From a virus (taxonomy: Duplodnaviria; Heunggongvirae; Uroviricota; Caudoviricetes): a DNA stretch of 64,000 nucleotides. The stretch lies in the IMG/VR virus record IMGVR_UViG_3300028591_008384. One strand, written 5' to 3'. The notes below the pieces were generated by a model. It did not search any database, was not told where the DNA came from, and saw nothing but the letters and a program-made list of their open reading frames with translations. Position numbers and translations under genes: made by a program. Of this stretch, positions 17,368 through 50,712 are shown in pieces; position 1 is the stretch's first letter, and every line of letters starts with the position of its first letter.

Positions 17368-17940
17368 ATGAACCTTGAAAAACTCTCAAAGGAAATCTCC
17401 TACGCGCTGCGCCATGCACCGTGGGAATACGAACTGGAACTGGACGAGGAAGGCTTCGTGCCCATCGAACAGCTCCTCCATGCCCTCAATGAAGGGGGCA
17501 ACTACGTGGACGACCGTCCGGTCACCAAGGAAGACCTGGAAGAAATCATCCGCACTTCCGACAAGAAGCGCCATGAAATCGTAGGGGACCGCATCCGCGC
17601 CCTCTATGGCCACAGCGTCCCCCAGGCCATCAAGAAGGAAATTGGTACCCCTCCGGACATCCTGTACCACGGCACCAACGAGTTCTGCTTTGGGGCAATC
17701 GAAAAGGACGGCCTCCTGCCCATGGCCCGCCAGTATGTCCACATGTCCACCGATACCCAGATGGCGGAAACGGTGGCCAAGAGGCGCAAGGGGCGAGTGC
17801 TCATCCTAAAGATTGATGCCAAGCAGGCAATGGCCGACGGTATCGAGTTCTTCGTGGGCAACGACAGTGTGTGGCTGGCAAAGCACATCCCACCCCAGTA
17901 CATTTCGGTCATCATGACGGAGGGGAAGGGCGACTTATGA
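17368..17940 (+). CDS. kptA: RNA 2'-phosphotransferase Tpt1/KptA family
   Basis: ORF track 190 aa; N-terminal LSKEISYALRHAPWEYELELDEEGFVPI and the HGT motif (YHGTNEF) match my recollection of the Tpt1 family signature. Confidence 0.65.
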   Translation: MNLEKLSKEISYALRHAPWEYELELDEEGFVPIEQLLHALNEGGNYVDDRPVTKEDLEEIIRTSDKKRHEIVGDRIRALYGHSVPQAIKKEIGTPPDILYHGTNEFCFGAIEKDGLLPMARQYVHMSTDTQMAETVAKRRKGRVLILKIDAKQAMADGIEFFVGNDSVWLAKHIPPQYISVIMTEGKGDL

Positions 17941-18158
17941 TAATCACGTTCAAGAAGAACATCGGAACTGCCGCCTATGACAGCGATGCCATCGTTAAAA
18001 TGGAATTTAGTCCAAACTGTGGCCTGGAAATCACCTATGCCGCATCCGGCAAAGGGAACGCCACGCCTGTCATCCAGACCGACCGTCATTACATAACCGA
18101 ACCGGAATACGAACAGGTTCTCGAACAATGGAAGAAATCGAAGGAGACCTCCAAATGA
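17937..18158 (+). CDS. hypothetical protein
   Basis: Internal Met of ORF 17871..18158 overlapping the upstream stop (ATGA). Confidence 0.3.
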   Translation: MIITFKKNIGTAAYDSDAIVKMEFSPNCGLEITYAASGKGNATPVIQTDRHYITEPEYEQVLEQWKKSKETSK

Positions 18159-18658
18159 TGAAGAAGGTACTTGACACGGTGGAAGACTTGGTCATGTTCA
18201 AGGCGAAGCCCACCCCGGAACAGCAGGTCAAGGAACTCGACGAGCAGATCGAGGACCTGAAAAAGAAGCGCCAGCTCGTCCTTGACGGGGTGGACAAGAA
18301 GTACGTGAACAAGATGCTATCCCGCATAATGGGCCAGTGGGTCATCGTGGGCGGGTGGAGCGATGACGACGAGCATCCGTTCCACGGGCAGCATTACACC
18401 ATCTACAAGGTCGTGAAGGCCCTGCAGTGGGAAGGCGGGAACAGCTTCCGCATCATCGCGAAGCACATGATGTACCTGTCCGCCGAAGGATACCTGAACG
18501 GTGGCATCTACGAGGTGGATGTCAACCGCCGTGTCAAGGACATCGGGAACCTTGCCGTCATTTCCGCGGAAAAGGTCGCAAGCATCATCAGGAATGCCCG
18601 CAAGGCCGTGAACAAGCACCTTGACAAGGCATTGAAGGAAGCACAGGGGGATATCTAG
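18155..18658 (+). CDS. hypothetical protein
   Basis: ORF track 18128..18658 trimmed to MMKKVLD, which overlaps the upstream stop. Confidence 0.4.
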   Translation: MMKKVLDTVEDLVMFKAKPTPEQQVKELDEQIEDLKKKRQLVLDGVDKKYVNKMLSRIMGQWVIVGGWSDDDEHPFHGQHYTIYKVVKALQWEGGNSFRIIAKHMMYLSAEGYLNGGIYEVDVNRRVKDIGNLAVISAEKVASIIRNARKAVNKHLDKALKEAQGDI

Positions 18659-18659
18659 C

Positions 18660-19067
18660 ATGCAGCCGTATAAGGAATACATCAAGAATGTCAACCGGGG
18701 AGTAATAGAAATCACCAGTGCCGAGCGCATCCAGGAATGGATCGACGAGAGGATGAAGGACAATGATTATGGCAAGGTCCTCTTCTCCGTACTGGTCCTC
18801 GACCCGGCATACGAGAACCAGGTGGTAGAGCTCATCAAGCGCAACTATCCGAAGTACACCCGTTGCGACACCAAGCTCGGATGCTGGTGTCTCAATGACG
18901 ACTGGTACGAGTTCTACGCAGACGCCATCACCGAATACTGCGGTGTCTACCCAATCAAGTGGAACATCGCCGACGTGGTGTTCCTCGAAGAACTGTACCT
19001 CAGGCGCAAGATATACATCGATGCCGCCTGGGTGACCAAGGACGGCCATCTCCGTCCAATCCACTAA
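18660..19067 (+). CDS. hypothetical protein
   Basis: ORF track 135 aa. Confidence 0.4.
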   Translation: MQPYKEYIKNVNRGVIEITSAERIQEWIDERMKDNDYGKVLFSVLVLDPAYENQVVELIKRNYPKYTRCDTKLGCWCLNDDWYEFYADAITEYCGVYPIKWNIADVVFLEELYLRRKIYIDAAWVTKDGHLRPIH

Positions 19068-19076
19068 GGAGCAACC

Positions 19077-19475
19077 ATGAGCAAGATTACAACAGAACAG
19101 ATTACCGCTGCCGCAAAGGCGGCATGCAACAGCTTCCCGTTCTTCAAGCACGGGTTCTCCGCAACACCCCCGCACGACATCACCGAGGACCTAGACGCGG
19201 CCATCAAGGTCAACGAACTGCTTCCGGACATATTCGACAATGTTTCCTGCGATACCGCCAACAATATCGTAGGAACCTTCAAGTTACAAGGCATTTTCAA
19301 GAATAGCAAGGGGAACAATATCCCGGTGCAAGTGCATGTTGACCGTTATGATGTCTCATTCAGCGCATGGCCCAGTAACATGATAGAAATGATGCAGGCC
19401 TACCTGAACAAGGAGCCACGTTCCCCGGTAGTACCGGTCGCGACCTATGCCGATGTCGTCCAGCGAGACGGTTAA
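19077..19475 (+). CDS. hypothetical protein
   Basis: ORF track 132 aa; SD aaggagc. Confidence 0.4.
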   Translation: MSKITTEQITAAAKAACNSFPFFKHGFSATPPHDITEDLDAAIKVNELLPDIFDNVSCDTANNIVGTFKLQGIFKNSKGNNIPVQVHVDRYDVSFSAWPSNMIEMMQAYLNKEPRSPVVPVATYADVVQRDG

Positions 19476-19487
19476 CCTACTATCCGG

Positions 19488-19520
19488 CAAAAAACAAGGG
19501 CTCCGAAAGGAGCCCTTTTC
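19488..19520. terminator. bidirectional intrinsic terminator between convergent operons
   Basis: Hairpin GGGCTCC-gaaa-GGAGCCC flanked by an A-run 5' and a T-run 3', so it reads as a hairpin plus U-tract on both strands. Confidence 0.6.
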
Positions 19521-19524
19521 CGTA

Positions 19525-19941
19525 CTACCCGATGGCTAGGATGCGCCAGTTAATCTTGGAGTTTTCCAGGAGGTATATGTATCCGCGCCATCCTATCCGC
19601 TGCACAATCTCGTCCCGGTTCCAGCACCGGATCCACGCGAGGTTGCCTTCCTTGTCCTGGGTCACCAGGACCACCCGGACCTTGTTGTCGAAGTCGCATG
19701 ACGGGTTGGTGTCGGTGAACAGCAGGGTGAACAGGTGTCGCCCGGGTACCCCCGCGCGAAGCCTGTATCCGGGCATGTAAACCACGTTTACGCATGACCC
19801 CGGAAATGTAAACGGAAGTTTACTCAGGATAACATGCGGACCGGGTACATATTCGACCAGGTTGTCCTTTTCCACGCGGACGGTGATACCCTTGTATGGA
19901 TTCACCGGGAACCCAAGCAGTCGCTTTACTTTTTCGAACAT
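19525..19941 (-). CDS. hypothetical protein
   Basis: ORF track 138 aa. Confidence 0.4.
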   Translation of the reverse strand: MFEKVKRLLGFPVNPYKGITVRVEKDNLVEYVPGPHVILSKLPFTFPGSCVNVVYMPGYRLRAGVPGRHLFTLLFTDTNPSCDFDNKVRVVLVTQDKEGNLAWIRCWNRDEIVQRIGWRGYIYLLENSKINWRILAIG

Positions 19942-20309: not shown

Positions 20310-20336
20310 AATCGCCTCCTACAGGAAACTATTCCA

Positions 20337-21092: not shown

Positions 21093-21745
21093 TTGATACC
21101 TAGCAAATCGTAAACTTTCTTTACACACTCGATGTTATTGTTCATCAGGCGATTATCTACACGCTCGATGTACTGGTCGCGATTTTCCTTCAACATGTCC
21201 CTGAAGTCGCATACGTTCATCTTGCGCCATCTCATCTCATCGCCGGTCTGGCTTACCAACTCGTTGATGAAATTCTCGAAATTGCACACGTCGCCAGCAT
21301 CGAAAGAGGCGGACACGAATACATCCGGTACAATATCGAAGTTGGGCGCAAAGCGGAACATCATGATATGCACCTTGTCACACTTGAACCACTGTTCCGG
21401 CGTGAGGACGGTTGTACCGTGACAGTCAATCACGTCATACCGCTCGCCATCCGGCGTACCGGCCTTTATCCCGGTAACCCTGAACACGGTCGGGTTATTC
21501 CCAAGGCCGCTCTCGGTTGCGCACCACCTTCCAAACAGTTCCTTGCCGGCCTTCTTGGTGACAGCGACAACACGGCTGTAATCACCGTATTCCCGTTGGC
21601 AACGCCAGTATTTCTGTTCCTCTAAATAGGATTCGTGCTCATCGGTTTCGAGCTTCTTCTCGTAGTCAATCAGATCCTGCGGATCCATCTTGACGAACTT
21701 GTTGAACAGCTCTGCCTTATGCTTGATTTCATCATCAATGCTCAT
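21089..21745 (-). CDS. hypothetical protein
   Basis: ORF track 218 aa. Confidence 0.4.
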   Translation of the reverse strand: MSIDDEIKHKAELFNKFVKMDPQDLIDYEKKLETDEHESYLEEQKYWRCQREYGDYSRVVAVTKKAGKELFGRWCATESGLGNNPTVFRVTGIKAGTPDGERYDVIDCHGTTVLTPEQWFKCDKVHIMMFRFAPNFDIVPDVFVSASFDAGDVCNFENFINELVSQTGDEMRWRKMNVCDFRDMLKENRDQYIERVDNRLMNNNIECVKKVYDLLGIK

Positions 21746-22481
21746 AGTTCTGGCTTCGTCCTTTGAATGTAAGTTCCTTCCATCTAGTTGTCAGCAGGTC
21801 GGGATAGCACTTTTCCATGCCTTCGTACATCCCTATGCTGAAAGCGTCGTTCATCTCAACCAGGGCAGTATCCCCGCTATCGAGAACACCGACATCCAGG
21901 CAGTATGCCCATGGCGCCATGGTGAACTTGTCCACCATTTCTTCCACCTCCGCCTTGTCCACGGCGATGCTCTTGTCGCCATCGTACCAGAAGTATCCCT
22001 GGATTTTGCCATGGATTACAGGGACACGGTATTCCGATACCCACTGTACAGGCTCGGAACAGTACAGTTCCAGGCTCCCACCGATATGGCTGAGTGGCGC
22101 GAGATCGTCGCGGGTGCTCACCACGCGACCAGTAAACCGTTTCAACTTGTTCGCAGGCTTGATAAATACCGGGGCAATCTCGCCTTCCGTTTCGATTTGC
22201 TGCCGGATACGCTTCAAGCTGCTTTTCCATACGTTGCGGAGACGATACCATGCCAGTTCAAACGGATAGTCTATCGCCTCATACTCCACGCCGAGCTGTT
22301 TCAGGGCAGGGAGTGTGACCTGCAGACTGCCGGCAACAAAATCACCTGGCTGCAATTTGATGCGCCGTTGCAGAATTTCCTTCGCGTGGAAGGGGACATA
22401 GTTACCCTCGCCGAAATCCTCGGCCAGGCAAGCCTCCTCCGGGGCGAATGTCGAGTTGTCTTTCAGTTGCAAGTAGTTCAT
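21735..22481 (-). CDS. ATP-grasp fold enzyme (putative)
   Basis: ORF track 248 aa; FIKPANKLKRFTG (ATP-binding Lys region) and C-terminal LVEMNDAFS (E-x-N metal-binding motif) are typical of ATP-grasp enzymes. Confidence 0.45.
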   Translation of the reverse strand: MNYLQLKDNSTFAPEEACLAEDFGEGNYVPFHAKEILQRRIKLQPGDFVAGSLQVTLPALKQLGVEYEAIDYPFELAWYRLRNVWKSSLKRIRQQIETEGEIAPVFIKPANKLKRFTGRVVSTRDDLAPLSHIGGSLELYCSEPVQWVSEYRVPVIHGKIQGYFWYDGDKSIAVDKAEVEEMVDKFTMAPWAYCLDVGVLDSGDTALVEMNDAFSIGMYEGMEKCYPDLLTTRWKELTFKGRSQNYEH

Positions 22482-22705: not shown

Positions 22706-22740
22706 CGCGATGCGCTCGGTGCCCTTCTTGTCACGAATAA

Positions 22741-27477: not shown

Positions 27478-28851
27478 CTAGTCCAGTGCGTCAGGGTTTT
27501 CGGGGATGGGTTCGTACTTGAAGGCCTCGATTGCACGCTCGATAACCTTCGGGTCAGGGCAGTTGACCTTGCCCGGAGAGTCGGAGAGCTTCACCGCGTA
27601 CTTGCCGTTGGACATGATGAGCTTCATAATCATGCGGAGAGCATCGCGCTTCTTGTCGCCCTTGAAACGTACCAGCTTGCAGGCGAGGAAACCGCCAATA
27701 CCGAAGGCAACATTGATGTCCTTATGGAACTCGGTGGCAATCGCGATGGAGTGGTCAACATCGAGGCTGTCGGACCAGCATCCGCACTTCGTATTGGACG
27801 GGATGTTGTTCTTGCGGTAATGGTCGATGAGCATGTGGCCCCACACGAACGGATCGCCGGAGTCGTGGCGGCATCCGTCATAGAGCTTGGCCAGGTAGCG
27901 GTCAAAGTCGCGGAGGAACGCCTTGAAGCCGAAGTTGTCGGACAACGCGATACCGAGGTTGCCGCGGAACTCGTCGGCCCAGTCGTTGAGGACAGCGGCC
28001 TGGGACAGGTGCAGCGGGATGCTGTCGATGCCCTGGTAGAGGGCGTAGAGTTCATGGGCGAACGTACCGATTGCCTTGCAGCCGCACTTGATGGCCAGGT
28101 ACACGTTGGAGGTACCCACGAAGGCCGGGCAGCAGTCAATCATGTACTTCACCATGTACTCGTTCCAGTCATCGTCGATGGAACGGCGGACGCCGAAATC
28201 GGAAATCGTGAACTTGATACCACTGCGGAGGGCAGCATTCCACTTGGCGACCGCTTCGCGCAGGGCCGTCTTGGACGCATCCCAGTCGATATCGAGGTCG
28301 TCAAAGTAAAGGTTCTGGATGATTTTCAGCACATAGATTTCAAACCAGGTCGCCTGGATTGCCGGGATGCACCCGCCATCTGCGGTACCCGCCCAGATAT
28401 GGAGACCACCGTTGTACTTCGAGTCTTTGGCCACATGGATGTATTCGCGCTTCAGGCGGAAATCGGCCAGCATCTCGATGAAGTCATCGGAGAGCCACGG
28501 CATGACCCTGCGGATGCCTTCCAGTTCCCATTCGGTAAAGCGGAGGGTGCAGAGGTGGTCGAGTTCGCGGTTGATTTCGTCAAAATACGGGGTGAGGTCA
28601 ACACCGGTGGAACGGAGCTTGAATTCCCAGTAGGAGCGCTCGTTACGGCGCTTGTGGAACACAAGCTGGGCCATACCGAATTTATACGTGTCCGTCTTGG
28701 TCAGGTAGTCCACGCACCACTTGTTTGGGTTCTTGCGGCGATACTGTTTCGCTGCAGCAGGAGTGACGAGCTTCGCGCTCGGTTTACGACGACCCTTGCG
28801 GTTAGGCATTGCAAGGGAGAGTTTCTTCTTTTCGGTTACTTTCTGTGCCAT
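27478..28851 (-). CDS. nadV: nicotinamide/nicotinate phosphoribosyltransferase (NadV/NAMPT-like)
   Basis: ORF track 27478..28920 trimmed to Met24 with SD agaggt; RHDSGDPFVWG matches the R-DSGD signature of the NAPRTase/NAMPT family; about 457 aa, typical size. Confidence 0.6.
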   Translation of the reverse strand: MAQKVTEKKKLSLAMPNRKGRRKPSAKLVTPAAAKQYRRKNPNKWCVDYLTKTDTYKFGMAQLVFHKRRNERSYWEFKLRSTGVDLTPYFDEINRELDHLCTLRFTEWELEGIRRVMPWLSDDFIEMLADFRLKREYIHVAKDSKYNGGLHIWAGTADGGCIPAIQATWFEIYVLKIIQNLYFDDLDIDWDASKTALREAVAKWNAALRSGIKFTISDFGVRRSIDDDWNEYMVKYMIDCCPAFVGTSNVYLAIKCGCKAIGTFAHELYALYQGIDSIPLHLSQAAVLNDWADEFRGNLGIALSDNFGFKAFLRDFDRYLAKLYDGCRHDSGDPFVWGHMLIDHYRKNNIPSNTKCGCWSDSLDVDHSIAIATEFHKDINVAFGIGGFLACKLVRFKGDKKRDALRMIMKLIMSNGKYAVKLSDSPGKVNCPDPKVIERAIEAFKYEPIPENPDALD

Positions 28852-31185: not shown

Positions 31186-31259
31186 AGCGGGAGACGAGAT
31201 TCGAACTCGCGACCTAGGCAATGGGAATGCCTCGCTCTACCACCTGAGCTACTCCCGCA
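31186..31259 (-). tRNA. tRNA-Gly(CCC)
   Basis: Hand-folded cloverleaf: acceptor GCGGGAG/CTCCCGC, D-arm GCTCAGGTGGTAGAGC, anticodon stem AGGCA/TGCCT with loop TTCCCAT, T-arm GGTCGCGAGTTCGAATCTCG; no encoded CCA. Confidence 0.6.
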
Positions 31260-34734: not shown

Positions 34735-35823
34735 CTATCTCCCGATTGCCTTCACGTAATCTTCGAGGATTTGGTTGTGGTGGAATGCCAGACGTGTCCT
34801 ACGGGCCACGCTCAACGGGAACCACGCAGCTTCCGCGGCATCATCGTCCCCCTTGACCGACCCGAACGTACCACGAGCATACACACCCACGTCATACGCC
34901 CAGTGGCCAGGCACGCTCTCACGCGGATCTTCCGGGATGTACACCTTCAACTGGTGGACCTGATTGGGGTAGAGGACAAGGCCAGTTTCCTCATTGAGTT
35001 CTCGGCAACTGCAATTCTCGATAGGTTCATGGGGATTGGTAAATCCACCTGGGAGACACCAATACCCGGCAAAGGGCCAACGCTTGCGGCGCACCAGGAG
35101 CACCTGGTCCTCGCGACCGATGGTCGGCTCACCGATGCCATTGATGACCACGGAGGTCACGGTGACAGAAGGCTTCGGGTAGTCACCTGGCTTGTAATTG
35201 GCAAGTTCCTGGTGTTCAGCGGTCCAATGGGTTACCGGATTGTCCTGATGGTACAGGCCATGCTGGAAGATGTACCCGAGAACTTGCGGAGAAACAGCCG
35301 TGCCCTCGTACATGGGGTTCATGAACATGTCACTGCGGACAGCGGTGGACGACACGTCTGGCACATTCACGAAGATTGGCTTGATGTCGCCACGTTCACC
35401 GAGTTCCGTATGGAAGTTGAAGTTGCGGCCACGATTGAACACGCGGATGCTGTACTTGCCGATGAGCTTCTCAGAATCCTTCCACTTGCCGGCAAGCAGA
35501 GCTTCAAGCTCGTCCATGCCGATAATGAGGTCAATGTCTGGGTCCTTCTTCTCGGACCCGGTGACATAGGTCCCATAGACCGCTTCAAGGGTATCGAACG
35601 TGCGGGACGACTGCTTGTAGATCTTGAGTTTCGGAAAACGGATATTTAGCATGGCATATCGGTCCTGGAACGAGGCATTGTACCGCTTCTCGTCATTCTC
35701 GGTCAGATAGACATGTACTTCCGGGTAGTTTTCCAGGAGATACTCGATGATGGCCTCGTGGGCCACGGTAAGCGGGTCAAATGCACCGCCATAGACTGCA
35801 ATTCTCTTTTCCATATTTACCAT
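34735..35823 (-). CDS. natV: bifunctional NMN adenylyltransferase / Nudix hydrolase (NatV-like)
   Basis: ORF track 362 aa; N-terminal IAVYGGAFDPLTVAHEAII (class-I nucleotidyltransferase HxGH-type motif); C-terminal Nudix box GYWCLPGGFTNPHEPIENCSCRELNEETGL. Confidence 0.65.
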   Translation of the reverse strand: MVNMEKRIAVYGGAFDPLTVAHEAIIEYLLENYPEVHVYLTENDEKRYNASFQDRYAMLNIRFPKLKIYKQSSRTFDTLEAVYGTYVTGSEKKDPDIDLIIGMDELEALLAGKWKDSEKLIGKYSIRVFNRGRNFNFHTELGERGDIKPIFVNVPDVSSTAVRSDMFMNPMYEGTAVSPQVLGYIFQHGLYHQDNPVTHWTAEHQELANYKPGDYPKPSVTVTSVVINGIGEPTIGREDQVLLVRRKRWPFAGYWCLPGGFTNPHEPIENCSCRELNEETGLVLYPNQVHQLKVYIPEDPRESVPGHWAYDVGVYARGTFGSVKGDDDAAEAAWFPLSVARRTRLAFHHNQILEDYVKAIGR

Positions 35824-37160: not shown

Positions 37161-37197
37161 ACCCAAAATGTAGCAAAATGGACAGAAGGTGGCAACT
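37161..37197 (-). promoter_or_regulatory. phage promoter motif
   Basis: Reverse complement GTTGCCACCTTCTGTCCATTTTGCTACATTTTGGGT-ATG. Confidence 0.5.
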
Positions 37198-41402: not shown

Positions 41403-41419
41403 TTTACTTTTCCTTTTAT

Positions 41420-42766
41420 TTAGAAATTCTCCCACTCCATCGGCAGCAACTTCTCGGCAAGTTCCACGGAGAACTTGTCGATTTCTTCCGGCGTATATGC
41501 CTTTTCCTTCAATCCGGATTCGGCAAACGCCTTGTTCACTTCCTTTCCAAGTTCGCCGATGTAGTCGATGATGTCCTCGAAAGTCCAATCGCCGTTCTTG
41601 ATGGCCAGGAGGAAGTCACGGTCATTACTGTACGGATGCTTGTTGTAGTCCATGCAGACCTTGTTGCAGAGGTCCCTGTCCGCACGGTAGACCGGGACGG
41701 TATGCTCGGTGGCGATACCGTAGGCGGTAAGGAGCAGACGGACACAGTGCATGATGTTCTTCGCATCGTAGCCCTGGCCATGCTTCAAGGTGGTGTTGTA
41801 GCGTTCCTCGTTACGGGCCTTGACCCAGTCCCAATACTCGTGCCACTTCTTGCACTTACGCGCAAAGTCGTTGCGGTTCACGAAGATATGGGCAACGGGG
41901 CTCAAACCCTTCGGAATGGAGTTGAGCTGGATATCATCGCTGCGCTCGATGTCACGGACGACACCATAGCCCCAACGCCACTTGTGCTCGGGAAGCTGGC
42001 GGACACCCTTGAATACCTTGGAGAGGCATTTCCAGACGAATTCGCGGATACTGATGGACAGCGGCTTCTTCTGGAAATACATGGCGTAAATACAGTCGCC
42101 ATGGTCGATACGGGCGATGGAGAACCAACGCTGCACTTCTTCCGGCTTGCCGCGATAGTTGGCCTTGACCCATTCCATGAGTGGAGTGGCGAGGTTGCCA
42201 TCGAGCACGTAGATGAAATCGACAAAGCGCGGCCTGTCTTTCGGCTGCGGGTCGAACACCTTCTTGTTCAGGCCCTTGGCGCGGTCAACCTGGCCACGGG
42301 CATACTCGCAGAACGACTTGTCACAGCGCATGGTGAGGAAGTCAAATCTCTTGCGGAGGATTTCCAGGATGGACTGGCCGATAAACACGCAGTGCCTCGG
42401 CGCATAGAGCATTTCGAGAGCCTGTGGATTTGCAGAGTTCAATTCGGTAAGGAACTTCGTGATGTCCCAGTAGACCTCGTTGTTCTTCTTGTCGGCAATC
42501 TGGCTAGGCGCATCGTGCTTGACGCGCTCGCTCCATTTCAGGATATACACGCCGTGGATGTCCACGTCGGATGTCTCGGTCGCGAGACCGAACGACTGCG
42601 AACCCGCGGCAACCTTGATAAGGAGGATACCCTTTTCATGGACCCTCTTCTCGGTCTCGGACATGGCGCCATTGGTCACCTGTTCTTCCCAGTAGCGTTC
42701 GAGTTCCTTGGAGAATGGCGGGAGTTCGGGTATGCTGTTCTTGAAAATTTCGCTATTATCGTTCAT
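41420..42766 (-). CDS. Pol-beta superfamily nucleotidyltransferase (RNA-repair-associated type, putative)
   Basis: ORF track 41420..42772 (TTG) moved to the in-frame ATG; GS-x10-DVD motif (AAGSQSFGLATETSDVDIHGVY); leaderless after the promoter box. Confidence 0.5.
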   Translation of the reverse strand: MNDNSEIFKNSIPELPPFSKELERYWEEQVTNGAMSETEKRVHEKGILLIKVAAGSQSFGLATETSDVDIHGVYILKWSERVKHDAPSQIADKKNNEVYWDITKFLTELNSANPQALEMLYAPRHCVFIGQSILEILRKRFDFLTMRCDKSFCEYARGQVDRAKGLNKKVFDPQPKDRPRFVDFIYVLDGNLATPLMEWVKANYRGKPEEVQRWFSIARIDHGDCIYAMYFQKKPLSISIREFVWKCLSKVFKGVRQLPEHKWRWGYGVVRDIERSDDIQLNSIPKGLSPVAHIFVNRNDFARKCKKWHEYWDWVKARNEERYNTTLKHGQGYDAKNIMHCVRLLLTAYGIATEHTVPVYRADRDLCNKVCMDYNKHPYSNDRDFLLAIKNGDWTFEDIIDYIGELGKEVNKAFAESGLKEKAYTPEEIDKFSVELAEKLLPMEWENF

Positions 42767-42800
42767 GTTCAAAATATAGCAAAATTATTCCCGATTGGCA
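42767..42800 (-). promoter_or_regulatory. phage promoter motif
   Basis: Reverse complement TTTTGCTATATTTTGAAC-ATG. Confidence 0.45.
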
Positions 42801-42819
42801 GCCGTATTCGCTCATTTGC

Positions 42820-43098
42820 TTAATCCTGCACATCATATGATGTGTGAATGTTGATTTCCTTTACAGAGCATGCCGCGATGGTATCATTCATAACGATTTC
42901 GGAACCCCATCTGAGGCTACCGCGATCAACATTTTTTGCATTGGTTATAGCTTGCTCCGCCAGTTCACGGGTAGTGAACTGGACGGCCATCAACGGTTCA
43001 TCCGTGAGATATTCGTTAATCGATGCACAGCAGCCTGTATAATACCGCCCACTCTCGTGCTTTAGAACGTAGCCCTTCACGTCCTTTGTAATTTTCAT
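42820..43098 (-). CDS. hypothetical protein
   Basis: ORF track 42820..43176 trimmed to Met27, after the upstream gene stop. Confidence 0.3.
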   Translation of the reverse strand: MKITKDVKGYVLKHESGRYYTGCCASINEYLTDEPLMAVQFTTRELAEQAITNAKNVDRGSLRWGSEIVMNDTIAACSVKEINIHTSYDVQD

Positions 43099-43355
43099 TT
43101 CAGTTTTCCTCCATATAACTTGATTTTCAGCGGGATATCCCGCTTGCCGATAGCGATCCGCCTCACGGCTTCCCAATCCGTCACGGACATCTTCTCAAAG
43201 AGCCCCAGACGCCCGGTCCGTATGTAATTGCGGAACGCATTGAAACTGTTGCACATGAGGTTCACCACATACGGCTTGTTGTCGCCGAAGAACTTGTGCA
43301 TGGTTCCTTCCGGAATGACGATGCGCCACTTGTTGTCCTGGATCCATTCAATCAT
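43095..43355 (-). CDS. hypothetical protein
   Basis: ORF track 43095..43433 trimmed to Met27. Confidence 0.3.
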   Translation of the reverse strand: MIEWIQDNKWRIVIPEGTMHKFFGDNKPYVVNLMCNSFNAFRNYIRTGRLGLFEKMSVTDWEAVRRIAIGKRDIPLKIKLYGGKLK

Positions 43356-43882
43356 ACGACAACCCTCCCGGATGCCACGGCATCCCTGATTTTCTCGATG
43401 AGTTCGACTTCCATTAGTCCACTCAGCGTGCACACCGTGCTCGGCTTGTGCGTCATCTTTTCCTTGAATAGTTCCCGAGCATCAAATGCGAGGCGCCCAA
43501 GGGAGTCCTTGAACTGGTCACGCTGGAAATGTTCGCGGAATTCCTTCGGGAACGTCAGTTCCAGCTTGAATTCCCGTTCATTGTATTCCAGGGCTTTCAG
43601 TTTCTCAACCGCATCACCAAAGGACACTTCCTCGTCGTCATACTTGAACTTGTCGGCATAGACTTCCAAGGTGTGATGAGCATCTTCCCACTGGACGGAA
43701 CCGTCCGGACAGGGGAAAATTTCCATTTCGAGGGGAACGAACGGCTGAATGAGACGTGCCTTGGATATAACCTCGGCACTTACAGCCTCATTGGGCCGCC
43801 CATCCGAATAGGTGGCATACCATCCTGGCTGTGAACAGTCCTTCTCGATGCCTTCGAGCGTATTTCCATGGCAATCAATCAT
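43352..43882 (-). CDS. hypothetical protein
   Basis: ORF track 43352..44035 trimmed to Met52 (MIDCHG), which overlaps the upstream stop. Confidence 0.35.
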   Translation of the reverse strand: MIDCHGNTLEGIEKDCSQPGWYATYSDGRPNEAVSAEVISKARLIQPFVPLEMEIFPCPDGSVQWEDAHHTLEVYADKFKYDDEEVSFGDAVEKLKALEYNEREFKLELTFPKEFREHFQRDQFKDSLGRLAFDARELFKEKMTHKPSTVCTLSGLMEVELIEKIRDAVASGRVVV

Positions 43883-44766
43883 CCGAATACCTCCTTGAAT
43901 GCCTCGTAGTTTTCGGTATCCGCACCGCGACAGTAGACGGCGAACTCGATTGCCTTGAAACGCTTGCGGAATTCCGGCACGACTTCCTTGTAGGCCGATG
44001 CGACCACCTTCGGATCGTTGCGGAATGCCCCGCATCCGAATGCGCCGAGGATTACCACATCCACGAACTCATGTGCGGCTGCACTCAAGATCTGACGGGC
44101 ACGGGAGACATGGAGGGCCTTCAATTCCTCGGGAGAGATATCCGGTGCCAGTTCACGTTCCTGGTTGTACTTGGAAATGTTCTTCTCGCGCAGGTTGGGT
44201 GCCGCGCAGGTGATTACGTCGATAAACACCGGTTCCGGGAGCCAGTCGTAGTCATCATTACGGAGAATTGCAACATTCGGCGTATAGATGATGTCGTCGT
44301 TATGCAACGGGCCCACATTCTTGCGATGCGGGTCATAGAAACGGAGTTCGGCTTCCTTGGTCGTGAGGCACGGGTAGAGCGTTGTGCAGCGGCAGATGCA
44401 TTCTTCCTGTGCGGACGAACCGGTCACGACACCGCCACCCGGACGGGTAGCGCTCGCGAAATTGAGGACGGCCACCTTGCCACAGGGATTGGCCTTCTTC
44501 CACCTCAGCGCACTGTCGATCGAACGGTCACGGGAAACCGTGACGGGACAATCGTCATCGTAAATAGGCGCGATGGACTTGATGTCCACCGGTTTCAGGT
44601 GGAACAACTGGTTCGAAATGGACTCGTTGATGACCTTCCCGAGGGAGGCATCGTCCTTGATCTTGGCCATCGTGTTCTCGAAGATGCCGATATTGTAGCT
44701 TCTGATGTCGTTATGCATTCCTTGCTCCGCGGTTAATTTCCTTGATTTCATTGTTCTTTTCGGCAA
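43879..44766 (-). CDS. bacterial-type poly(ADP-ribose) glycohydrolase / macrodomain (DUF2263-like)
   Basis: ORF track 295 aa; PARG signature GGG-x7-QEE present as RPGGGVVTGSSAQEE within VLNFASATRPGGG...QEECICRCTTLYPCL. Confidence 0.55.
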   Translation of the reverse strand: MPKRTMKSRKLTAEQGMHNDIRSYNIGIFENTMAKIKDDASLGKVINESISNQLFHLKPVDIKSIAPIYDDDCPVTVSRDRSIDSALRWKKANPCGKVAVLNFASATRPGGGVVTGSSAQEECICRCTTLYPCLTTKEAELRFYDPHRKNVGPLHNDDIIYTPNVAILRNDDYDWLPEPVFIDVITCAAPNLREKNISKYNQERELAPDISPEELKALHVSRARQILSAAAHEFVDVVILGAFGCGAFRNDPKVVASAYKEVVPEFRKRFKAIEFAVYCRGADTENYEAFKEVFG

Positions 44767-45115
44767 CCAGGTTGTTCACCTTCGTAAAGAAGGATTCCGT
44801 TTCCAGTTCAACCATGCGATGCTGCTGTTCGCACATCATCACGAATTCTCGGGACAATGTCTTGCACGGAATGAAGGAAAATGTCCTGGCGATTACCGGG
44901 TTACGATACCAGGTATCAACGAAATTCAACTGAATCTGCGCATTGAGGCACTTGAATGAGCCGTTGGCGCATTCACTAATCCAGAATTCCAGGCACACGC
45001 CTTCCTTTCCCTTAGTAAACCGCGTACGGTCACGGTCTGTCCCGAACCCGCGTGATTCCAGCCATTTCCCGAATTCCTGAATTTCTGACCATTTAGGCTT
45101 TGCCATGATTACCAC
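44711..45115 (-). CDS. hypothetical protein
   Basis: ORF track 134 aa. Confidence 0.35.
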   Translation of the reverse strand: MVIMAKPKWSEIQEFGKWLESRGFGTDRDRTRFTKGKEGVCLEFWISECANGSFKCLNAQIQLNFVDTWYRNPVIARTFSFIPCKTLSREFVMMCEQQHRMVELETESFFTKVNNLVAEKNNEIKEINRGARNA

Positions 45116-46344
45116 ATCCTGTTCATTGAATTGTCCAAGTCATCCTTGATGCGCTTGCAGTCGGCGAGGATGACTTCCCGCAGACGCTTGCCAAATTCAG
45201 GCCCTTCCTGAATACCTTCGGCAGCAACCTGCTTTCCGTATTCGGGTTCGCCCTTTCTACACCTAGCAATCAGTTCGCATATTGTCACCGCGCCCTCGCC
45301 CAGGGCAGTGCCATACGGGTTCAGTTCACGGTACAGGTTGGCGATGATCCTGAATTCCGGGGAAGCGGCCAGCTCGACAGAATAGAGCAGCTTCTCATCG
45401 GCAAGGCCGAACTTGCCGGACATGATGCCGATAAGGCCATCCCTGATGCGTTCGGCCATACGGATTTCCTTGCGGGTACAGCGGAGCCATTCCATTGTCT
45501 TCTTCGGCAGCATGCAGATGAATACGGACATGATTGTGTCTGCATCCACGTTGCCGCGCACCAAGGTTTCCACCAGCATGCGCTGACGGTCGAAGCAGAA
45601 GCCGGCATCCTGGAAAATCGATCCGATACCGTAATCGGACAAGTAACCAATCATGTTCACAAATGGCATAACTCCGTACTCGGCGCACTTGTGGAGCTCG
45701 TCATGGATACGTTCCATGGCAACGTTCTTTACATGGTGGAGACGGCTACGCATCGCCAGCTTGGTAAGATCGTCAATCACGAAACCGAAACGGGCAGCAA
45801 ATCGCATTCCGCGGATGATACGGAGGGAATCCTCGGTCATGCGGTCATACGGGTTGCCCACTGCACGAAGACGGCGGAACACCAGGTCATCGATGCCACC
45901 GAAGTAGTCTATGACATTGAGGTCCTTGTCCAGACCCATCGCGTTGATCGTGAAGTCACGACGGGCGCAGTCCTCCTTGAAGGACTTGGTGAAATTCACG
46001 GAATCCGGGTGACGACCGTCGGAGTAGTTGCCATCGACACGGAACTGAGTCACCTCGAACACCAGGCCCTCGTAATGGACCAGGATGGTGCCATGAGCCT
46101 CCCCGTTATTGGAATCGCAGCGGAAGGCAAGTTTCAGGTCCTCGATGGGCATATTGGTCGCGATGTCCACGTCATGGACGGGGACTTCGGCATCGGTGCC
46201 CGGAACCATGCCCAACTGGCGAATAACGAGGTCACGCACCGCACCGCCGGCAATGTATGCCTCGTGCTTGCGCTTGTGGATTTCGGCAAGAAGGCCAAGG
46301 CCCTTCCTGACGGTCTCCGAAATGTACTTCTCTTCAATCTTCAT
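45109..46344 (-). CDS. cca: tRNA nucleotidyltransferase (CCA-adding enzyme, class II polyA-polymerase head-domain type)
   Basis: ORF track 45109..46383 trimmed to the Met (MKIEEKY) 5 nt after the promoter box; motifs AYIAGGAVRDLV ... DVDIAT, RRDFTINAM, EDSLRIIRGMRFAARFGF. Confidence 0.75.
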   Translation of the reverse strand: MKIEEKYISETVRKGLGLLAEIHKRKHEAYIAGGAVRDLVIRQLGMVPGTDAEVPVHDVDIATNMPIEDLKLAFRCDSNNGEAHGTILVHYEGLVFEVTQFRVDGNYSDGRHPDSVNFTKSFKEDCARRDFTINAMGLDKDLNVIDYFGGIDDLVFRRLRAVGNPYDRMTEDSLRIIRGMRFAARFGFVIDDLTKLAMRSRLHHVKNVAMERIHDELHKCAEYGVMPFVNMIGYLSDYGIGSIFQDAGFCFDRQRMLVETLVRGNVDADTIMSVFICMLPKKTMEWLRCTRKEIRMAERIRDGLIGIMSGKFGLADEKLLYSVELAASPEFRIIANLYRELNPYGTALGEGAVTICELIARCRKGEPEYGKQVAAEGIQEGPEFGKRLREVILADCKRIKDDLDNSMNRMW

Positions 46345-46382
46345 GTCCCAAATGTAGCAAAAAGGTTGCCTTGCGGCAACCA
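46345..46382 (-). promoter_or_regulatory. fused intrinsic terminator and phage promoter
   Basis: Reverse complement GGTTGCC-gcaa-GGCAACC hairpin, then TTTTT, then GCTACATTTGGGAC-ATG; this terminates the upstream gene and provides the -33/-7 elements for cca. Confidence 0.5.
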
Positions 46383-46383
46383 T

Positions 46384-47025
46384 CTACTCTTTGGGGGGTT
46401 CGTAACTGTCGTACACCTTGACTTTCACCGTATCCAGCATTTTCTGTGCCTTATGGATAGCATAATGCCTGAATTTCTCGGCATCCGCTTCCTTCATGAA
46501 TATCTTCCCACCAACAAGGCAATGAGAATCCATCATTTTGAGGATAACTGCGTACGCTTCCTTGGGGTCTTTGGAAGGAACGGCCAATGGAGGATCTATT
46601 TTTGCCGGGTGCGGAGGCAGTGGCATCCACCATTCGATGGAATGGCCCTCGTCACCAGTCTGTACATCCAGGCAACGGTCGCTATGCGTGACGATATTGT
46701 TCACATCGGCATGATATTCTCCCCAGTCCAGCATTCCATCTTCCCAAATGAGGAGGACATACCCATCCTTCTCGGTCGGTTCACGCTCTTCCATCGAAAT
46801 CCACATGGAACCGGTGGCGCTTTCACGCTGAAACGCGGCCAGCATCTTCCGTAAAACCGCATTTTCCTCTTCCAGGCGGGCAAAATCGCTAATTGCGGTA
46901 TCGGCGAGCCGTTTCAGGTGTTCAAGTTCGCCCTTATGGACCTCCACCTTGATGTTCTGGGGGAGTTCCATACCGGGCATTATCGGGTAATGTGGTTCCA
47001 ATTCGTTATTGTTCATTCTGTTCAT
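46384..47025 (-). CDS. hypothetical protein
   Basis: ORF track 46384..47058 trimmed to Met12. Confidence 0.35.
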
Positions 47026-48454: not shown

Positions 48455-49202
48455 TGAAGAAAGCCTCCATCATTTCGTCGTTTATGTCCTTCCTGAGAGC
48501 ATCCCAACGGTCGGCATCTACCTTGAACCCGTAAAGGATGGCGGGCTTGTCACCCGTGATACCTTCATCGAGGTATTTCTTGGCGAGTTTCTTGCCAAAC
48601 TTGGCATCGACACCCATTTCGGCCATCACGGCCTTGACAAACAGGCCGAACTCGTACACGGCCACGGGACAGTCAGTGTTCCCTTCAATCGTCCCCACGA
48701 ACGCATCGTCCCAACGCTTGTCCAGTTTGCCGACGATCGGCATATCCCACCGGGTGGAGTCACCGCGTTCCTCGATATCATGCAGCACTTCAAAAATTAT
48801 CGGGGCATGCTCATGCTCATACGGGAGCGAACGGACCGTATTGAAGTTAAAATCATCGTTAGCCAAGGTGTAAAGTTCGCTTTCCATGAAATCGGCATCG
48901 GCAAGCTGTTCCTCGGTGTAGTCGCCCATTTCTTCCGCCCAGTTGGGGCCATAGCTTTCCATTTTAGAACGGACGGAAAGCTCGTATTCATATACGGGAA
49001 CCTCGATGCCGTGCTCGTTCACGATTGTCCCAATCATGCCCTTTTCGCAGCCGTCCGGGAACATCATGTACTCGTTCTGCTTGTTGGTACGGCGGGTGGC
49101 TTCCTTGAACCTTGCCTTGACCGCCTTGGAGAAACCTTTGAGGTCCAGTGGATGTGGTCCGAACAGTTCCTCAATCTTCTGCTTTTCTTCTTCCTTATCC
49201 AT
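48447..49202 (-). CDS. hypothetical protein
   Basis: ORF track 48447..49256 trimmed to Met19. Confidence 0.4.
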   Translation of the reverse strand: MDKEEEKQKIEELFGPHPLDLKGFSKAVKARFKEATRRTNKQNEYMMFPDGCEKGMIGTIVNEHGIEVPVYEYELSVRSKMESYGPNWAEEMGDYTEEQLADADFMESELYTLANDDFNFNTVRSLPYEHEHAPIIFEVLHDIEERGDSTRWDMPIVGKLDKRWDDAFVGTIEGNTDCPVAVYEFGLFVKAVMAEMGVDAKFGKKLAKKYLDEGITGDKPAILYGFKVDADRWDALRKDINDEMMEAFFNA

Positions 49203-49926
49203 TACGTCCTTCCTTTGTGTACGCATTCCAGTCTGGCTGATTACTGGCATAAGCATGGAAACACTGTCCAGGCATCAGCCCGAGATTATATGCGACCGAA
49301 TCCGGCACAGCCACGCTGGAATAGCCGGGGTCCGGCACTTCCATATACTGGCGAGTAGGGGCCTCTGGCTTATCATCGCCATACTTGCGGACACGGTAAT
49401 AGGTCTCGCCCGTACAGGCCGTCCTTTCCCACGGTACAGTTTCGTTATCAAGACCAACCGCGTATGCGATGGTGTTGGAGTAAATCGGTGGCACAATCGC
49501 ATCGTTCATGCGTCCAATCAGCACCTGGCCCTTTCCCCTGGAAAGCCATTCGGATAGTTCCCGGTAGGTGACGATAGGACCCTCATGGCGCATACGGTCG
49601 GTATCATCGGCTTTATCATTTGCCCCACTGAAATAGTCATAGACTGCCTTGGCACCCATGCCGGTAGTCTCGGCGCAATGGTCCCATGTGGCACCCATGT
49701 TCCGTGCGGCCATGCCGTCACCGTGGGCAAATACGCGCTTTGCGCCGAGCCCTGGGTTCACATAGAACACTTCCGCCAGGTATGGGGCCCCGCTTTCCGG
49801 GTCGTTGGCATCCTCGTCATCCCATACAAACATCATCTTCGGAGGATCGAAGGTCACCGGCTTATCGGGCAAAAATTCCTTTACGTCCGGCAAGCTAATC
49901 TTGAATAACTTTTTTGTTTCAGCCAT
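49195..49926 (-). CDS. hypothetical protein
   Basis: ORF track 49195..49974 trimmed to the Met (MAETKK) directly after promoter box TTTTTTGCTATATTTTTGTC-ATG. Confidence 0.4.
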   Translation of the reverse strand: MAETKKLFKISLPDVKEFLPDKPVTFDPPKMMFVWDDEDANDPESGAPYLAEVFYVNPGLGAKRVFAHGDGMAARNMGATWDHCAETTGMGAKAVYDYFSGANDKADDTDRMRHEGPIVTYRELSEWLSRGKGQVLIGRMNDAIVPPIYSNTIAYAVGLDNETVPWERTACTGETYYRVRKYGDDKPEAPTRQYMEVPDPGYSSVAVPDSVAYNLGLMPGQCFHAYASNQPDWNAYTKEGRNG

Positions 49927-49927
49927 G

Positions 49928-49972
49928 ACAAAAATATAGCAAAAAAGACACGGCTTTGAAGAAAGCCGTGCC
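49928..49972 (-). promoter_or_regulatory. intrinsic terminator (hairpin CACGGCTTT-cttcaa-AAGCCGTG plus T-run) immediately followed by the phage promoter box
   Basis: Reverse complement cacggctttcttcaaagccgtgtcttttttgctatatttttgtcATG; the terminator of the kinase gene and the promoter of the next gene share the T-tract. Confidence 0.5.
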
Positions 49973-49992
49973 ATTGAATTGTTAAAAAATGT

Positions 49993-50712
49993 TTACTTGG
50001 AGACGATTTCCACGATGCGCTCGGCGATCCGCTTCACGTCTTCGCGTACCTCATTCGCAAATACGACGGGTTCCGGGAAATGCGGGTCGTTGGAAGCACA
50101 CCACTTGTTGTACAGGTTATTCTGCATGTCGTCCGTAAGGGCGACCATCTTCCTGAAATTGGCCAGCAGCAGCTTGTTCTTGTCGTATTCCTCCTGGGGC
50201 AACACAAGGAACCCACGGCATTCGGTCTGGATATTGTTACGGATTGCATAACGGGAAACAACTCGGTCGATGCGCTCGTCGGTATTCGGCACGGTGATGC
50301 GGAATACATGGTCGATGGTACGCGCCGGGTTGACCCATTCGTACATCCACTTGCACATGACGGCGCTCTCGATGAAGATCGTCTTGTCGTTATACTGCCG
50401 GTCAAAGGTGAAATCGCAGAATATCTGCCCAAGCGCCAAACGCAGCGGGTACTGGACAAGGTTCATGAGGAAGTCATAGACCGTCCCGTCCTTCAATGCG
50501 AGGTCACGCACTTCCTGTGACAGGGAACCGAATGCATCGATTGCATCCGGGCCCCAGATGGATGTGACAGTACCGTACACGCTAGGGTTGCTCCTGTAGA
50601 TAACCTTCATCAGGTTGTCCGTGTTGATGACCGGGTAGCCCATCTTCCTGAGTTCCTCGGCCACACTGCTCTTCCCAGAGCCGATATTTCCACAAATGAT
50701 ACCGATTTTCAT
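49993..50712 (-). CDS. P-loop kinase, dephospho-CoA-kinase-like fold (possible nucleotide/polynucleotide kinase)
   Basis: ORF track 49993..50862 trimmed to Met51; Walker A IGIICGNIGSGKSSVAEELRKMGYPVINTDNL parallels the CoaE N-terminus. Confidence 0.45.
   Translation of the reverse strand: MKIGIICGNIGSGKSSVAEELRKMGYPVINTDNLMKVIYRSNPSVYGTVTSIWGPDAIDAFGSLSQEVRDLALKDGTVYDFLMNLVQYPLRLALGQIFCDFTFDRQYNDKTIFIESAVMCKWMYEWVNPARTIDHVFRITVPNTDERIDRVVSRYAIRNNIQTECRGFLVLPQEEYDKNKLLLANFRKMVALTDDMQNNLYNKWCASNDPHFPEPVVFANEVREDVKRIAERIVEIVSK

Follow-up and report, generated by a model that had tools for sequence, protein, structure and literature searches.

tRNA, RNA-end and NAD+ genes in an uncultivated jumbo phage: a candidate arsenal for translation support and counter-defence

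Introduction

The 64-kb stretch of viral DNA analysed here (IMG/VR record IMGVR_UViG_3300028591_008384, 51% G+C; "the window" below) carries 37 tRNA genes and six protein genes that a first-pass annotation, made from the sequence, had gathered into one toolkit for RNA-end healing and tRNA maintenance: Tpt1/KptA, a PTH2-type peptidyl-tRNA hydrolase, an HD phosphohydrolase, a Pol-beta nucleotidyltransferase, a CCA-adding enzyme and a CoaE-like P-loop kinase. It was proposed that these genes keep a private tRNA pool functional under attack by host nucleases. Do they form one system, and what would they do for the phage? The answer reached here is that the locus is reasonably likely to represent an arsenal of loosely organised genes that would support translation and counter host defences, and not a single system. 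All six domain assignments hold, by profile searches, PDB matches and, for the HD protein, a structure model; the Pol-beta nucleotidyltransferase belongs more precisely to the RlaP family (PF10127). The notion of phage tRNA maintenance keeps its support, from the need of the tRNAs for CCA addition and from the published reading of such gene sets, whereas that of six genes working as one system does not fit genes spread over 33 kb on two strands, one of which, the kinase, belongs to a radical-SAM operon. Genes linked to nicotinamide adenine dinucleotide (NAD+) and ADP-ribose (PncB, NMNAT-Nudix, PARG and LigA) and a protein with an EF-Ts N-terminal domain had been overlooked.

A jumbo-phage suite for RNA repair and tRNA provisioning was reportedly outlined by Burroughs and Aravind in 2016. 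Parts of Iyer et al. 2021 (PMC7824862) describe, in jumbo phages, tRNAs, RNA ligases, polynucleotide kinase (PNK), HAD, HD or calcineurin phosphatases and KptA with 2H and macro domains, as well as RlaP, CCA-adding enzyme, Thg1, PTH2, IF3 and a nicotinate phosphoribosyltransferase (NAPRTase) with NMNAT-Nudix; the same parts assign phage PTH2 to the archaeo-eukaryotic type. KptA has further been tied to NAD+-dependent RNA repair in jumbo phages (PMC9503650, Iyer et al. 2022). The combination, once thought possibly undescribed, is therefore not so, since these two papers, the first in the parts cited, describe it; moreover, Tpt1 matches 98 records among 50,697 deposited phage genomes, the comparison set for all phage-record counts below, and many of these records already bear the annotation RNA 2'-phosphotransferase.

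The phage lineage and the conservation of the gene set

Gene calling on the window yields 104 open reading frames (ORFs), in agreement with the coordinates and strands of the first-pass annotation for all six genes. Four of their start codons (26608, 37160, 46344 and 50712) are internal ATGs within longer ORFs, and the lengths of homologues back these starts. A search for near-DNA relatives in the 50,697 phage genomes returns nothing but one tRNA-Phe match: the source phage is uncultivated and has no near-DNA relative among them. Two IMG/VR relatives are syntenic, IMGVR_UViG_3300028797_000098 (203 kb) and IMGVR_UViG_3300037454_000941 (224 kb), and the same gene order is found on a 400-kb NCBI contig (GCA_045223515.1, JBGUZL010000231.1). 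LigA, at the right end of the window, ties in a wider contig family of 172-355 kb, while homologues of the PTH2-like protein occur on contigs (261-438 kb) that look phage-like and include one from a bovine gut metagenome. The 448-residue RlaP product is identical to a database protein on an ENA metagenome contig. In distant relatives, T4-like gp13 and gp15 genes adjoin the homologues of the HD gene. Because of these syntenic or related contigs of 172-438 kb and of the T4-like structural genes, the window is assigned to an uncultivated jumbo phage, of which it represents a piece; the family comprises contigs of 200-400 kb from rumen, gut and other metagenomes. Loci of relatives are designated below by L-numbers (L002, L004 ... 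L033), L004 being the closest relative.

Synteny is kept in the relatives over two segments, CCA-PARG-RlaP-dUTPase-HD-NMNAT and Tpt1 through PTH2. As the gene set recurs syntenically in related contigs, chance motif matches do not explain it. Within the first segment, the block 41409-46667 reads CCA enzyme, a 131-residue protein, PARG, three proteins of 176, 86 and 92 residues, and RlaP. This block is 83-94% identical in DNA to two relatives, against 64-78% for its flanks, and this difference suggests a module that is either strongly conserved or recently exchanged.

Could such a set nevertheless be assembled without any functional link? A mosaic genome of 200-400 kb holds hundreds of accessory genes, and six RNA-related domains in 33 kb might be a by-product of their accumulation; the genes are dispersed, many unrelated ORFs intervene, and contexts vary in distant relatives. 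We regard this explanation as very unlikely, considering that the set is kept in synteny across relatives, that the CCA-PARG-RlaP block is unusually conserved, and that the PTH2 and EF-Ts N-domain genes lie repeatedly beside tRNAs. Furthermore, Tpt1, RlaP and the CCA enzyme are each found in just 0.2-0.3% of the phage records, mainly in different genera. The whole suite in one lineage is uncommon among isolates.

Related huge-phage contigs also encode Thg1, a 3'-5' tRNA-end polymerase (L032:4132-4959), IF3 (L012:3967-4686) and a PnuC-like transporter of nicotinamide mononucleotide (NMN; L033:15842-16393), so that the translation and NAD+ repertoire of the lineage is wider than the window. Concerning the host, RlaP has its nearest matches within the phage collection, at ~30% identity, in uncultured huge phages and Prevotella Lak megaphages, and the nearest cellular relatives of the kinase are Prevotella CoaE proteins (28-29%). 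These matches give a weak hint of a Prevotella-like Bacteroidota host.

The tRNA genes and the proteins that accompany them

The 37 tRNA genes predicted by ARAGORN represent all 20 amino acids; 36 form an array, and a tRNA-Gly(CCC) gene stands alone. Rfam at its gathering score confirms 31 of the 37, and its scan of the window finds tRNAs alone, with no tmRNA, intron or riboswitch. As the first-pass annotation had it, a genomic CCA follows none of the 37 genes, and the array thus needs CCA addition. In the Rfam-confirmed genes, the 3' trailer after the discriminator base is CTA in 15 cases and CGA in 5, out of 31. This near-CCA trailer, C74-N75-A76 with N never being C, occurs far above chance; it might serve as a signal for processing or represent a 3' end already built in part. 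The array is kept downstream of LigA in relatives, and tRNA-Gly(CCC) lies just downstream of LigA in L007, L009, L010 and L011. Three genes of 74-76 nt with the Leu anticodons CAA, CAG and UAA (55402-55476, 55483-55558 and 55800-55873) are devoid of the long variable arm: they show an 11-nt gap compared with their counterparts in L004 and L031, and score 48-55 bits as tRNAs. A class I-shaped tRNA-Leu is unusual in bacteria and phages, and the short arm hints at selection on tRNA structure, beyond supply alone.

The enzyme expected to complete these tRNAs is encoded in the conserved block. The head of this class II nucleotidyltransferase matches PolyA_pol (PF01743, E 8.5e-29), and the protein matches phrog_2244, "tRNA nucleotidyltransferase" (E 3e-46). 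It possesses all class II motifs (GGAVRD, DxD, RRD, EDSLR and ERIHDE) and the RNA-binding neck. Homology makes CCA addition its most likely activity: its best PDB matches are the CCA-adding enzymes of Planococcus (6ibp, 6e-44) and Geobacillus (1miv, 2e-37), as compared to 1e-17 for a poly(A) polymerase and 2e-12 for an A-adding enzyme, and its best NCBIfam match is the CCA model NF009814 (215.7 bits for a cut-off of 290). CCA enzymes are found in at least 122 phage records, the tRNA-rich Wildcat, Caulobacter phages and Atu_ph07 among them.

The PTH2 assignment is marginal when the single sequence is considered (PF01981, 25.3 bits with the 182-residue ORF, for a cut-off of 23; NCBIfam, 27 bits for an equivalog cut-off of 126). 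Its family comprises 1,577 metagenomic homologues, nearly all of which contain PF01981, and the family profile retrieves from the PDB 1rlk (8.6e-6), 1xty (1e-5), 1rzw, 1wn2, 2zv3 and human Bit1 (1q7s). The protein, longer than the compact form of ~115 residues, harbors an internal insertion relative to archaeal Pth2. K17, D110/D111 and T115 are invariant across the homologues and plausibly represent the PTH2 catalytic residues. No match was found by tblastn in isolate phages. In L011, a homologue sharing 59% identity lies within the tRNA array, and another lies between two tRNA clusters of a 438-kb bovine-gut contig. The EF-Ts N-terminal domain (EF-Tu-binding, UBA-like) was identified by PF25025 (E 1.2e-5, below cut-off) and by the PDB entry 7vmx, an EF-Ts (E 1.3e-5); this protein, made up of that domain alone, could be an EF-Tu modulator. 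Its gene is embedded in the tRNA array and adjoins tRNAs in L004, L029, L031 and L033. Both the PTH2 and the EF-Ts-like gene track tRNA arrays.

These features invite a plain explanation by translational capacity, in which the phage, with its large genome and a codon usage unlike that of the host, would employ tRNAs, CCA enzyme, PTH2 and the EF-Ts-like protein just to raise or adjust translation, with no tie to tRNA-cleaving defences and with the other genes as unrelated accessories. A full 20-amino-acid tRNA set does need CCA addition, tRNA-rich phages of diverse kinds typically encode CCA enzymes, and relatives contain IF3. This explanation leaves RlaP, HD, Tpt1 and PARG unaccounted for, however, and the short-arm tRNA-Leu genes hint at more than capacity; we consider it possible but, on balance, doubtful.

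Predicted enzymes acting on RNA ends

The Tpt1/KptA assignment is unambiguous at the level of sequence. The match to PF01885 (E 6e-38, 131 bits for a cut-off of 26) covers profile positions 4-176 of 177, and that to phrog_5470 has an E-value of 1.4e-46. The motifs R15-H16, RIRALYGHS (75-83), YHGT (100-103) and KRR (138-140) are present. A catalytic Arg-His-Arg-Arg tetrad is described in yeast and Clostridium Tpt1; in the phage protein it maps, by motif and not by structure, to R15-H16, R75/R77 and R139/R140. The best NCBIfam score (191 bits) stays under the equivalog cut-off of 231, and the phage protein looks like a divergent member of the family. Its gene sits in a small plus-strand block, away from the other toolkit genes. 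Homologues sharing 53-67% identity neighbour, in another jumbo contig, an ORF that looks TnpB-like by eye and, in low-GC contigs of 40-52 kb, genes that by eye look like those for lysis and tail proteins; no tRNA was found near the homologues in this identity range, except for one in L025. In Erwinia jumbo phages, Tpt1 is surrounded by hypothetical genes.

The HD protein is the least conspicuous of the six. Direct profile searches (Pfam to E 0.5, PHROGs, NCBIfam and PDB sequences) returned nothing, and it is through its family that the assignment made in the first pass is supported. It has 13 detectable homologues, and three of the 11 sequences in the alignment match PF01966 (best E 3.2e-6). 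H44, H75-D76, H94, H127 and D161 are invariant in this alignment, the family thus retaining the H...HD...D metal ligands. An AlphaFold model of the protein exhibits the HD fold with a mean predicted confidence (pLDDT) of 89.8, and CCA-type enzymes rank top in a Foldseek search with it. In structure it appears to resemble most the helical part of class II tRNA nucleotidyltransferases, outside their head, and this makes the likeness to the HD domain of multifunctional CCA enzymes, noted in the first pass, a reasonable one as far as the model goes. The HD domain of the E. coli CCA enzyme takes off 2',3'-cyclic phosphate (parts of PMC6961547, citing Yakunin 2004). In distant relatives, HD homologues (44-49%) lie among structural genes, away from any CCA gene.

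RlaP matches PF10127 over its N-terminal part (E 6.8e-16, 59 bits for a cut-off of 23, 140 of 249 profile positions) and phrog_388 (E 2.4e-34), with the Pol-beta motifs GSQSFG (55-60, GS being 55-56) and DVD (67-69). RlaP is described as extending damaged 3' ends by one or two nucleotides (PMC12776372). The phage RlaP is 94-96% identical in the IMG/VR relatives and matches 154 phage records; a scan of genome contigs with it found no relative. In four distant relatives, L012-L015, homologues sharing 45-47% identity lie directly downstream of LigA (about 12.1-14.4 kb; homologue positions are ~12.6-13.2 kb in L012, L013 and L015 and 8.2 kb in the shorter locus L014). The ligase with which RlaP is associated in these four is a DNA ligase, not an RNA ligase.

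Between the CCA enzyme and RlaP lies a microbial-type PARG, a macrodomain-fold ADP-ribose glycohydrolase, identified by PF10021 (E 7e-31) and by TIGR02452, whose cut-off of 50 is largely exceeded (183 bits). Its signature is intact, with GGG at 94-96 and QEE at 104-106.

NAD+ genes and the ADP-ribose theme

Three further genes of the window concern NAD+ (Table 1). The PncB-type protein, for the first step of NAD+ synthesis, matches PF04095 (E 3.5e-51) and NAPRTase_N (E 1.4e-20); all its significant PDB matches are nicotinate phosphoribosyltransferases (best E 2.7e-58), not nicotinamide-specific ones. The NMNAT-Nudix fusion harbors the motif GAFDPLTVAH (10-19) and a Nudix box (256-276). LigA is the only ligase detected in the window. 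In the closest relative, a NAD synthase gene, nadE, is located ~8 kb beyond LigA (L004:941-1687), just outside the stretch corresponding to the window. Since the phosphoribosyltransferase is nicotinate-specific by homology and a NAD synthase occurs in the relative, PncB, NMNAT-Nudix and NadE point to a phage Preiss-Handler-like route to NAD+, distinct from NARP1-3. Together with PARG and LigA, PncB and NMNAT-Nudix provide natural company for the NAD+-consuming Tpt1, a more coherent context for it than that of a six-gene toolkit.

This company raises the possibility that counter-defence through NAD+ and ADP-ribose is the main theme. Tpt1, PARG, Nudix, PncB, NMNAT, NadE and LigA would then oppose host attacks that deplete NAD+ and that modify nucleic acids or proteins with ADP-ribose; Tpt1 would be an ADP-ribosyltransferase or cap-maker and not a tRNA repair enzyme, and tRNAs, CCA enzyme and PTH2 would form an independent translation module. 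The intact GGG...QEE signature of PARG accords with it, as do the nicotinate-type phosphoribosyltransferase, the NMNAT-Nudix fusion and NadE in a relative, the PnuC-like transporter in a related huge phage, and the Tpt1 homologues that stand alone in phage contexts of an unrelated kind, with hardly any tRNA close by. NAD+ reconstitution by phages is moreover an established counter-defence, demonstrated experimentally (NARP1-3; bioRxiv 10.1101/2024.02.11.579819; PMC13464706). Conversely, PARG is located between the CCA enzyme and RlaP in the best-conserved block, a physical link to RNA-end enzymes, Tpt1 is 26 kb away from PARG, and an ADP-ribosylated target is only hypothetical. As the dominant explanation of the locus, the NAD+ theme seems unlikely to us.

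Table 1. Positions of the main features in the window
Feature	Position	Strand	Basis
Tpt1/KptA RNA 2'-phosphotransferase (NAD+-dependent ADP-ribosyltransferase fold), 190 residues	17368..17940	+	PF01885, phrog_5470
PTH2-family peptidyl-tRNA hydrolase-like protein, 156 residues	26138..26608	-	PF01981
Nicotinate phosphoribosyltransferase (PncB type), first NAD+ synthesis step	27478..28851	-	PF04095, NAPRTase_N
Lone tRNA-Gly(CCC)	31186..31258	-	ARAGORN; Rfam tRNA 65.7 bits
NMN/NaMN (nicotinate mononucleotide) adenylyltransferase-Nudix fusion	34735..35814	-	PF01467 E 2e-7, PF00293 E 1.4e-14
Stand-alone HD-superfamily phosphohydrolase, 273 residues	36339..37160	-	homologues, metal ligands, structure model
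RlaP-family Pol-beta nucleotidyltransferase, 448 residues	41420..42766	-	PF10127, phrog_388
Microbial-type PARG (macrodomain-fold ADP-ribose glycohydrolase)	43879..44718	-	PF10021, TIGR02452
Class II tRNA nucleotidyltransferase, 411 residues	45109..46344	-	PF01743, phrog_2244
CoaE-like P-loop kinase, last gene of radical-SAM operon	49993..50712	-	PF01121, PDB
Three radical-SAM genes (371, 320 and 223 residues)	50714..53456	-	PF04055; CxxxCxxC in each
tRNA array, 36 genes	53884..57611	-	ARAGORN
EF-Ts N-terminal (EF-Tu-binding, UBA-like) domain protein, 109 residues	53967..54296	-	PF25025, PDB 7vmx
NAD+-dependent DNA ligase LigA	61861..63975	-	PF01653 E 2.2e-60; OB, HhH, BRCT domains

A model of the proposed arsenal

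In the reading that we favour, a loosely organised arsenal, the near-complete private tRNA set would be transcribed, probably as a tight array, and cut to CCA-less precursors, which the phage's own CCA enzyme would complete after 3' trimming. PTH2 would free tRNA from dropped-off or stalled peptidyl-tRNA, and the EF-Ts N-domain protein would probably contact EF-Tu. On damaged RNA, the HD phosphoesterase may open and remove 2',3'-cyclic or 2'-phosphates, after which RlaP could restore one or two nucleotides and the CCA enzyme rebuild the acceptor end. Tpt1, with NAD+, would remove 2'-phosphates or else ADP-ribosylate 5'-phosphate ends, and the PARG-type macrodomain might clear ADP-ribose products or conjugates. 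Finally, PncB, NMNAT-Nudix and NadE would rebuild NAD+, which would also feed LigA. The analysis shows the identities of the domains, their conserved catalytic motifs, the lack of a genomic CCA and the synteny and conservation in relatives, whereas the enzymatic activities, the substrates and any cooperation of the genes are inferred.

Several observations weigh against this model. Broken anticodon loops could not be resealed with the genes visible in the window, and about two thirds of the genome lie outside it. The six genes extend over 33 kb among many unrelated ORFs and on two strands, Tpt1 being opposite to the others. PTH2, CCA enzyme, Tpt1 and the CoaE-like kinase all score under their NCBIfam equivalog cut-offs, so that their exact activities may differ from those proposed; the HD protein and RlaP have no NCBIfam match. 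We know of no established physiological substrate of bacterial or phage Tpt1. Lastly, the first-pass annotation had itself named homologues in unrelated contexts and without tRNA genes as an observation that would speak against its proposal. This is partly what is seen: homologues of Tpt1 (53-67% identity) and of HD (44-49%) are found in unrelated contexts, those of Tpt1 with no tRNA found nearby save the one in L025, whereas PTH2 tracks tRNAs.

Is there a sealing step?

A complete pathway that heals and seals cleaved tRNA would require a ligase. None had been recognised in the first pass, and the searches made here bear this out. Pfam finds no RNA ligase (Rnl1, Rnl2 or RtcB), polynucleotide kinase, 2H, cRec or RtcA protein in the 104 ORFs, PHROGs finds no RNA ligase, PNK or 2H protein in the ORFs between ~4 and 62 kb, and the same three are not found by Pfam in the 10 kb beyond LigA in L004 or in the 22-kb locus L012. 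With no RNA ligase, PNK or 2H protein in the window, a complete heal-and-seal pathway is not shown.

A large protein of 854 residues (37196-39760, minus strand) was examined as a possible hidden ligase and rejected: it exhibits no ligase features and no sequence match in the PDB. It possesses a conserved N-terminal domain of ~300-370 residues, without a family match, that is shared by 310 representative proteins; WG-repeat, ANTAR and polyvalent (ART-PolyVal) proteins are among them. In the alignment of homologues, C181 is invariant and H255 and D266 are nearly so, which suggests, by eye only, a thiol enzyme. A single-sequence AlphaFold2 model reaches a pLDDT of 33. The gene is missing from the relative L002 and adjoins LigA in L007, L009 and L011.

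These results bear on the strongest form of the original proposal, in which all six genes make up one pathway that heals and reseals tRNAs cut by anticodon nucleases, with the kinase as an RNA 5'-kinase and an unrecognised ligase elsewhere in the genome or among its unknown ORFs. RlaP, HD and Tpt1 are all RNA-end enzymes, and relatives hold further ones, such as Thg1. According to parts of PMC7824862, RlaP and RNA ligases are distributed alike in jumbo phages, so that a ligase may lie in the unseen ~140-340 kb. Such a pathway is nonetheless quite unlikely in our estimate: the 104 ORFs contain neither ligase nor PNK, the 854-residue protein has no ligase features, the kinase resembles CoaE and not PNK and shares an operon with three radical-SAM genes, and the six genes lie apart from one another, without a common orientation. 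One can also conceive, for this lineage, of NAD+-centred RNA-end repair that dispenses with ATP-dependent RNA ligase and Pnkp. A stand-alone HD protein derived from the CCA-enzyme type, Tpt1 and PARG would clear 2',3'-cyclic and 2'-phosphate ends as well as the by-products that contain ADP-ribose; lost 3' nucleotides would be rebuilt by RlaP and the CCA enzyme; any sealing would fall to the NAD+-dependent ligase, whose gene directly precedes RlaP in four relatives; and PncB, NMNAT and NadE, as a Preiss-Handler pathway, would supply the fuel. This is highly improbable; if true, it would be an undescribed variant of phage RNA repair.

Comparison with known systems

The published jumbo-phage suite comprises the same families, with the same proposed roles, as the window: tRNAs, KptA, PTH2, HD-like protein, RlaP, CCA enzyme, a macro-fold protein, NAPRTase with NMNAT-Nudix and an NAD+-dependent ligase. 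The window differs in having no visible RNA ligase, PNK or 2H protein, in its nicotinate-type phosphoribosyltransferase with NadE nearby in a relative, in an HD family without a direct profile match, and in its uncultivated lineage. With phage T4, which repairs PrrC-cleaved tRNA-Lys by means of Pnkp and Rnl1, it shares the idea that a phage may reverse the harm done to tRNA by its host, whereas T4's 5'-kinase/3'-phosphatase and ATP-dependent RNA ligase were searched for in the window and not found. T4 too has an RlaP homologue, NrdC.11 (PMC12776372).

The multifunctional CCA enzyme of E. coli likewise associates a class II nucleotidyltransferase and an HD phosphoesterase, but in a fused form. 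In the phage, the two are separate genes 8 kb apart, and the 411-residue enzyme is of the Bacillus type and full-length already. In the yeast Tpt1-Cpd1-Poa1 pathway, 2'-phosphate removal after tRNA splicing is followed by disposal of Appr>p; the window likewise has Tpt1 and a macro-fold enzyme, possibly acting on ADP-ribose phosphate products, but neither a ligase that leaves a 2'-phosphate nor a 2H cyclic phosphodiesterase, and its macro enzyme is of the PARG and not the Poa1 type. NMNAT-Nudix is common to the window and NARP2-type phages, while the phosphoribosyltransferase, predicted to be nicotinate-specific by homology, and the NAD synthase of a relative would set it apart from NARP1-3. 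Finally, RlaP with intact Pol-beta motifs is shared with the bacterial RtcB-RlaP-RtcA operons (PMC12776372); RtcB and RtcA are both absent from the window, and in four relatives RlaP follows an NAD+-dependent DNA ligase instead.

The locus thus opens no new category, the families and their joint interpretation as counter-defence being already in the literature (2016-2022). It adds an uncultivated rumen/gut jumbo-phage lineage to the phages in which genes for tRNA ends, RNA repair and NAD+ accompany a near-complete set of tRNAs, and it fits the view that large phages are partly independent of host translation and NAD+ supply. It also provides material for biochemistry: a profile-less HD protein resembling part of a CCA enzyme, a divergent PTH2 family tracking tRNA arrays, and near-CCA (CUA/CGA) trailers.

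The kinase and the radical-SAM operon

The CoaE-like kinase matches PF01121 with 37 bits for a cut-off of 27, over profile positions 5-72 of 180 (the N-terminal 70 residues), and has a P-loop, GNIGSGKS, at 8-15. Its best PDB matches are all dephospho-CoA kinases (E 6.4e-8), while TIGR00152 gives 30.8 bits for an equivalog cut-off of 65.55; tblastn against isolate phages finds no match. The three radical-SAM genes overlap by 4 bp, and the kinase gene follows the last of them after a gap of 1 bp. A promoter-like site (53491-53463) and a terminator-like hairpin (49972-49947) mark the ends of the operon. The radical-SAM/kinase unit is kept in L029-L031, down to 44% identity for the kinase. Because it is translationally coupled to the three radical-SAM genes and conserved with them, the kinase is set apart from RNA repair as part of a separate operon, and its membership of an RNA toolkit is doubtful. 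Viperin, MoaA and QueE were considered as identities for the radical-SAM trio and rejected, the NCBIfam matches being weak, generic and far below cut-offs. A related radical-SAM pair, with an acetyltransferase, is present in the 73-kb Dulem virus 40, and in the Erwinia jumbo phages a distant radical-SAM homologue lies ~1 kb from Tpt1.

Other features of the window

Two islands, 1674-2688 and 7438-10173, display a third-position G+C of 0.27-0.40, against ~0.65 elsewhere; their six ORFs have no Pfam match and are probably recently acquired genes. An R2K-clade ATP-grasp protein is encoded at 21735-22481 on the minus strand (PF18299, E 4.8e-35); members of this family are predicted to add peptide or amino-acid tags.

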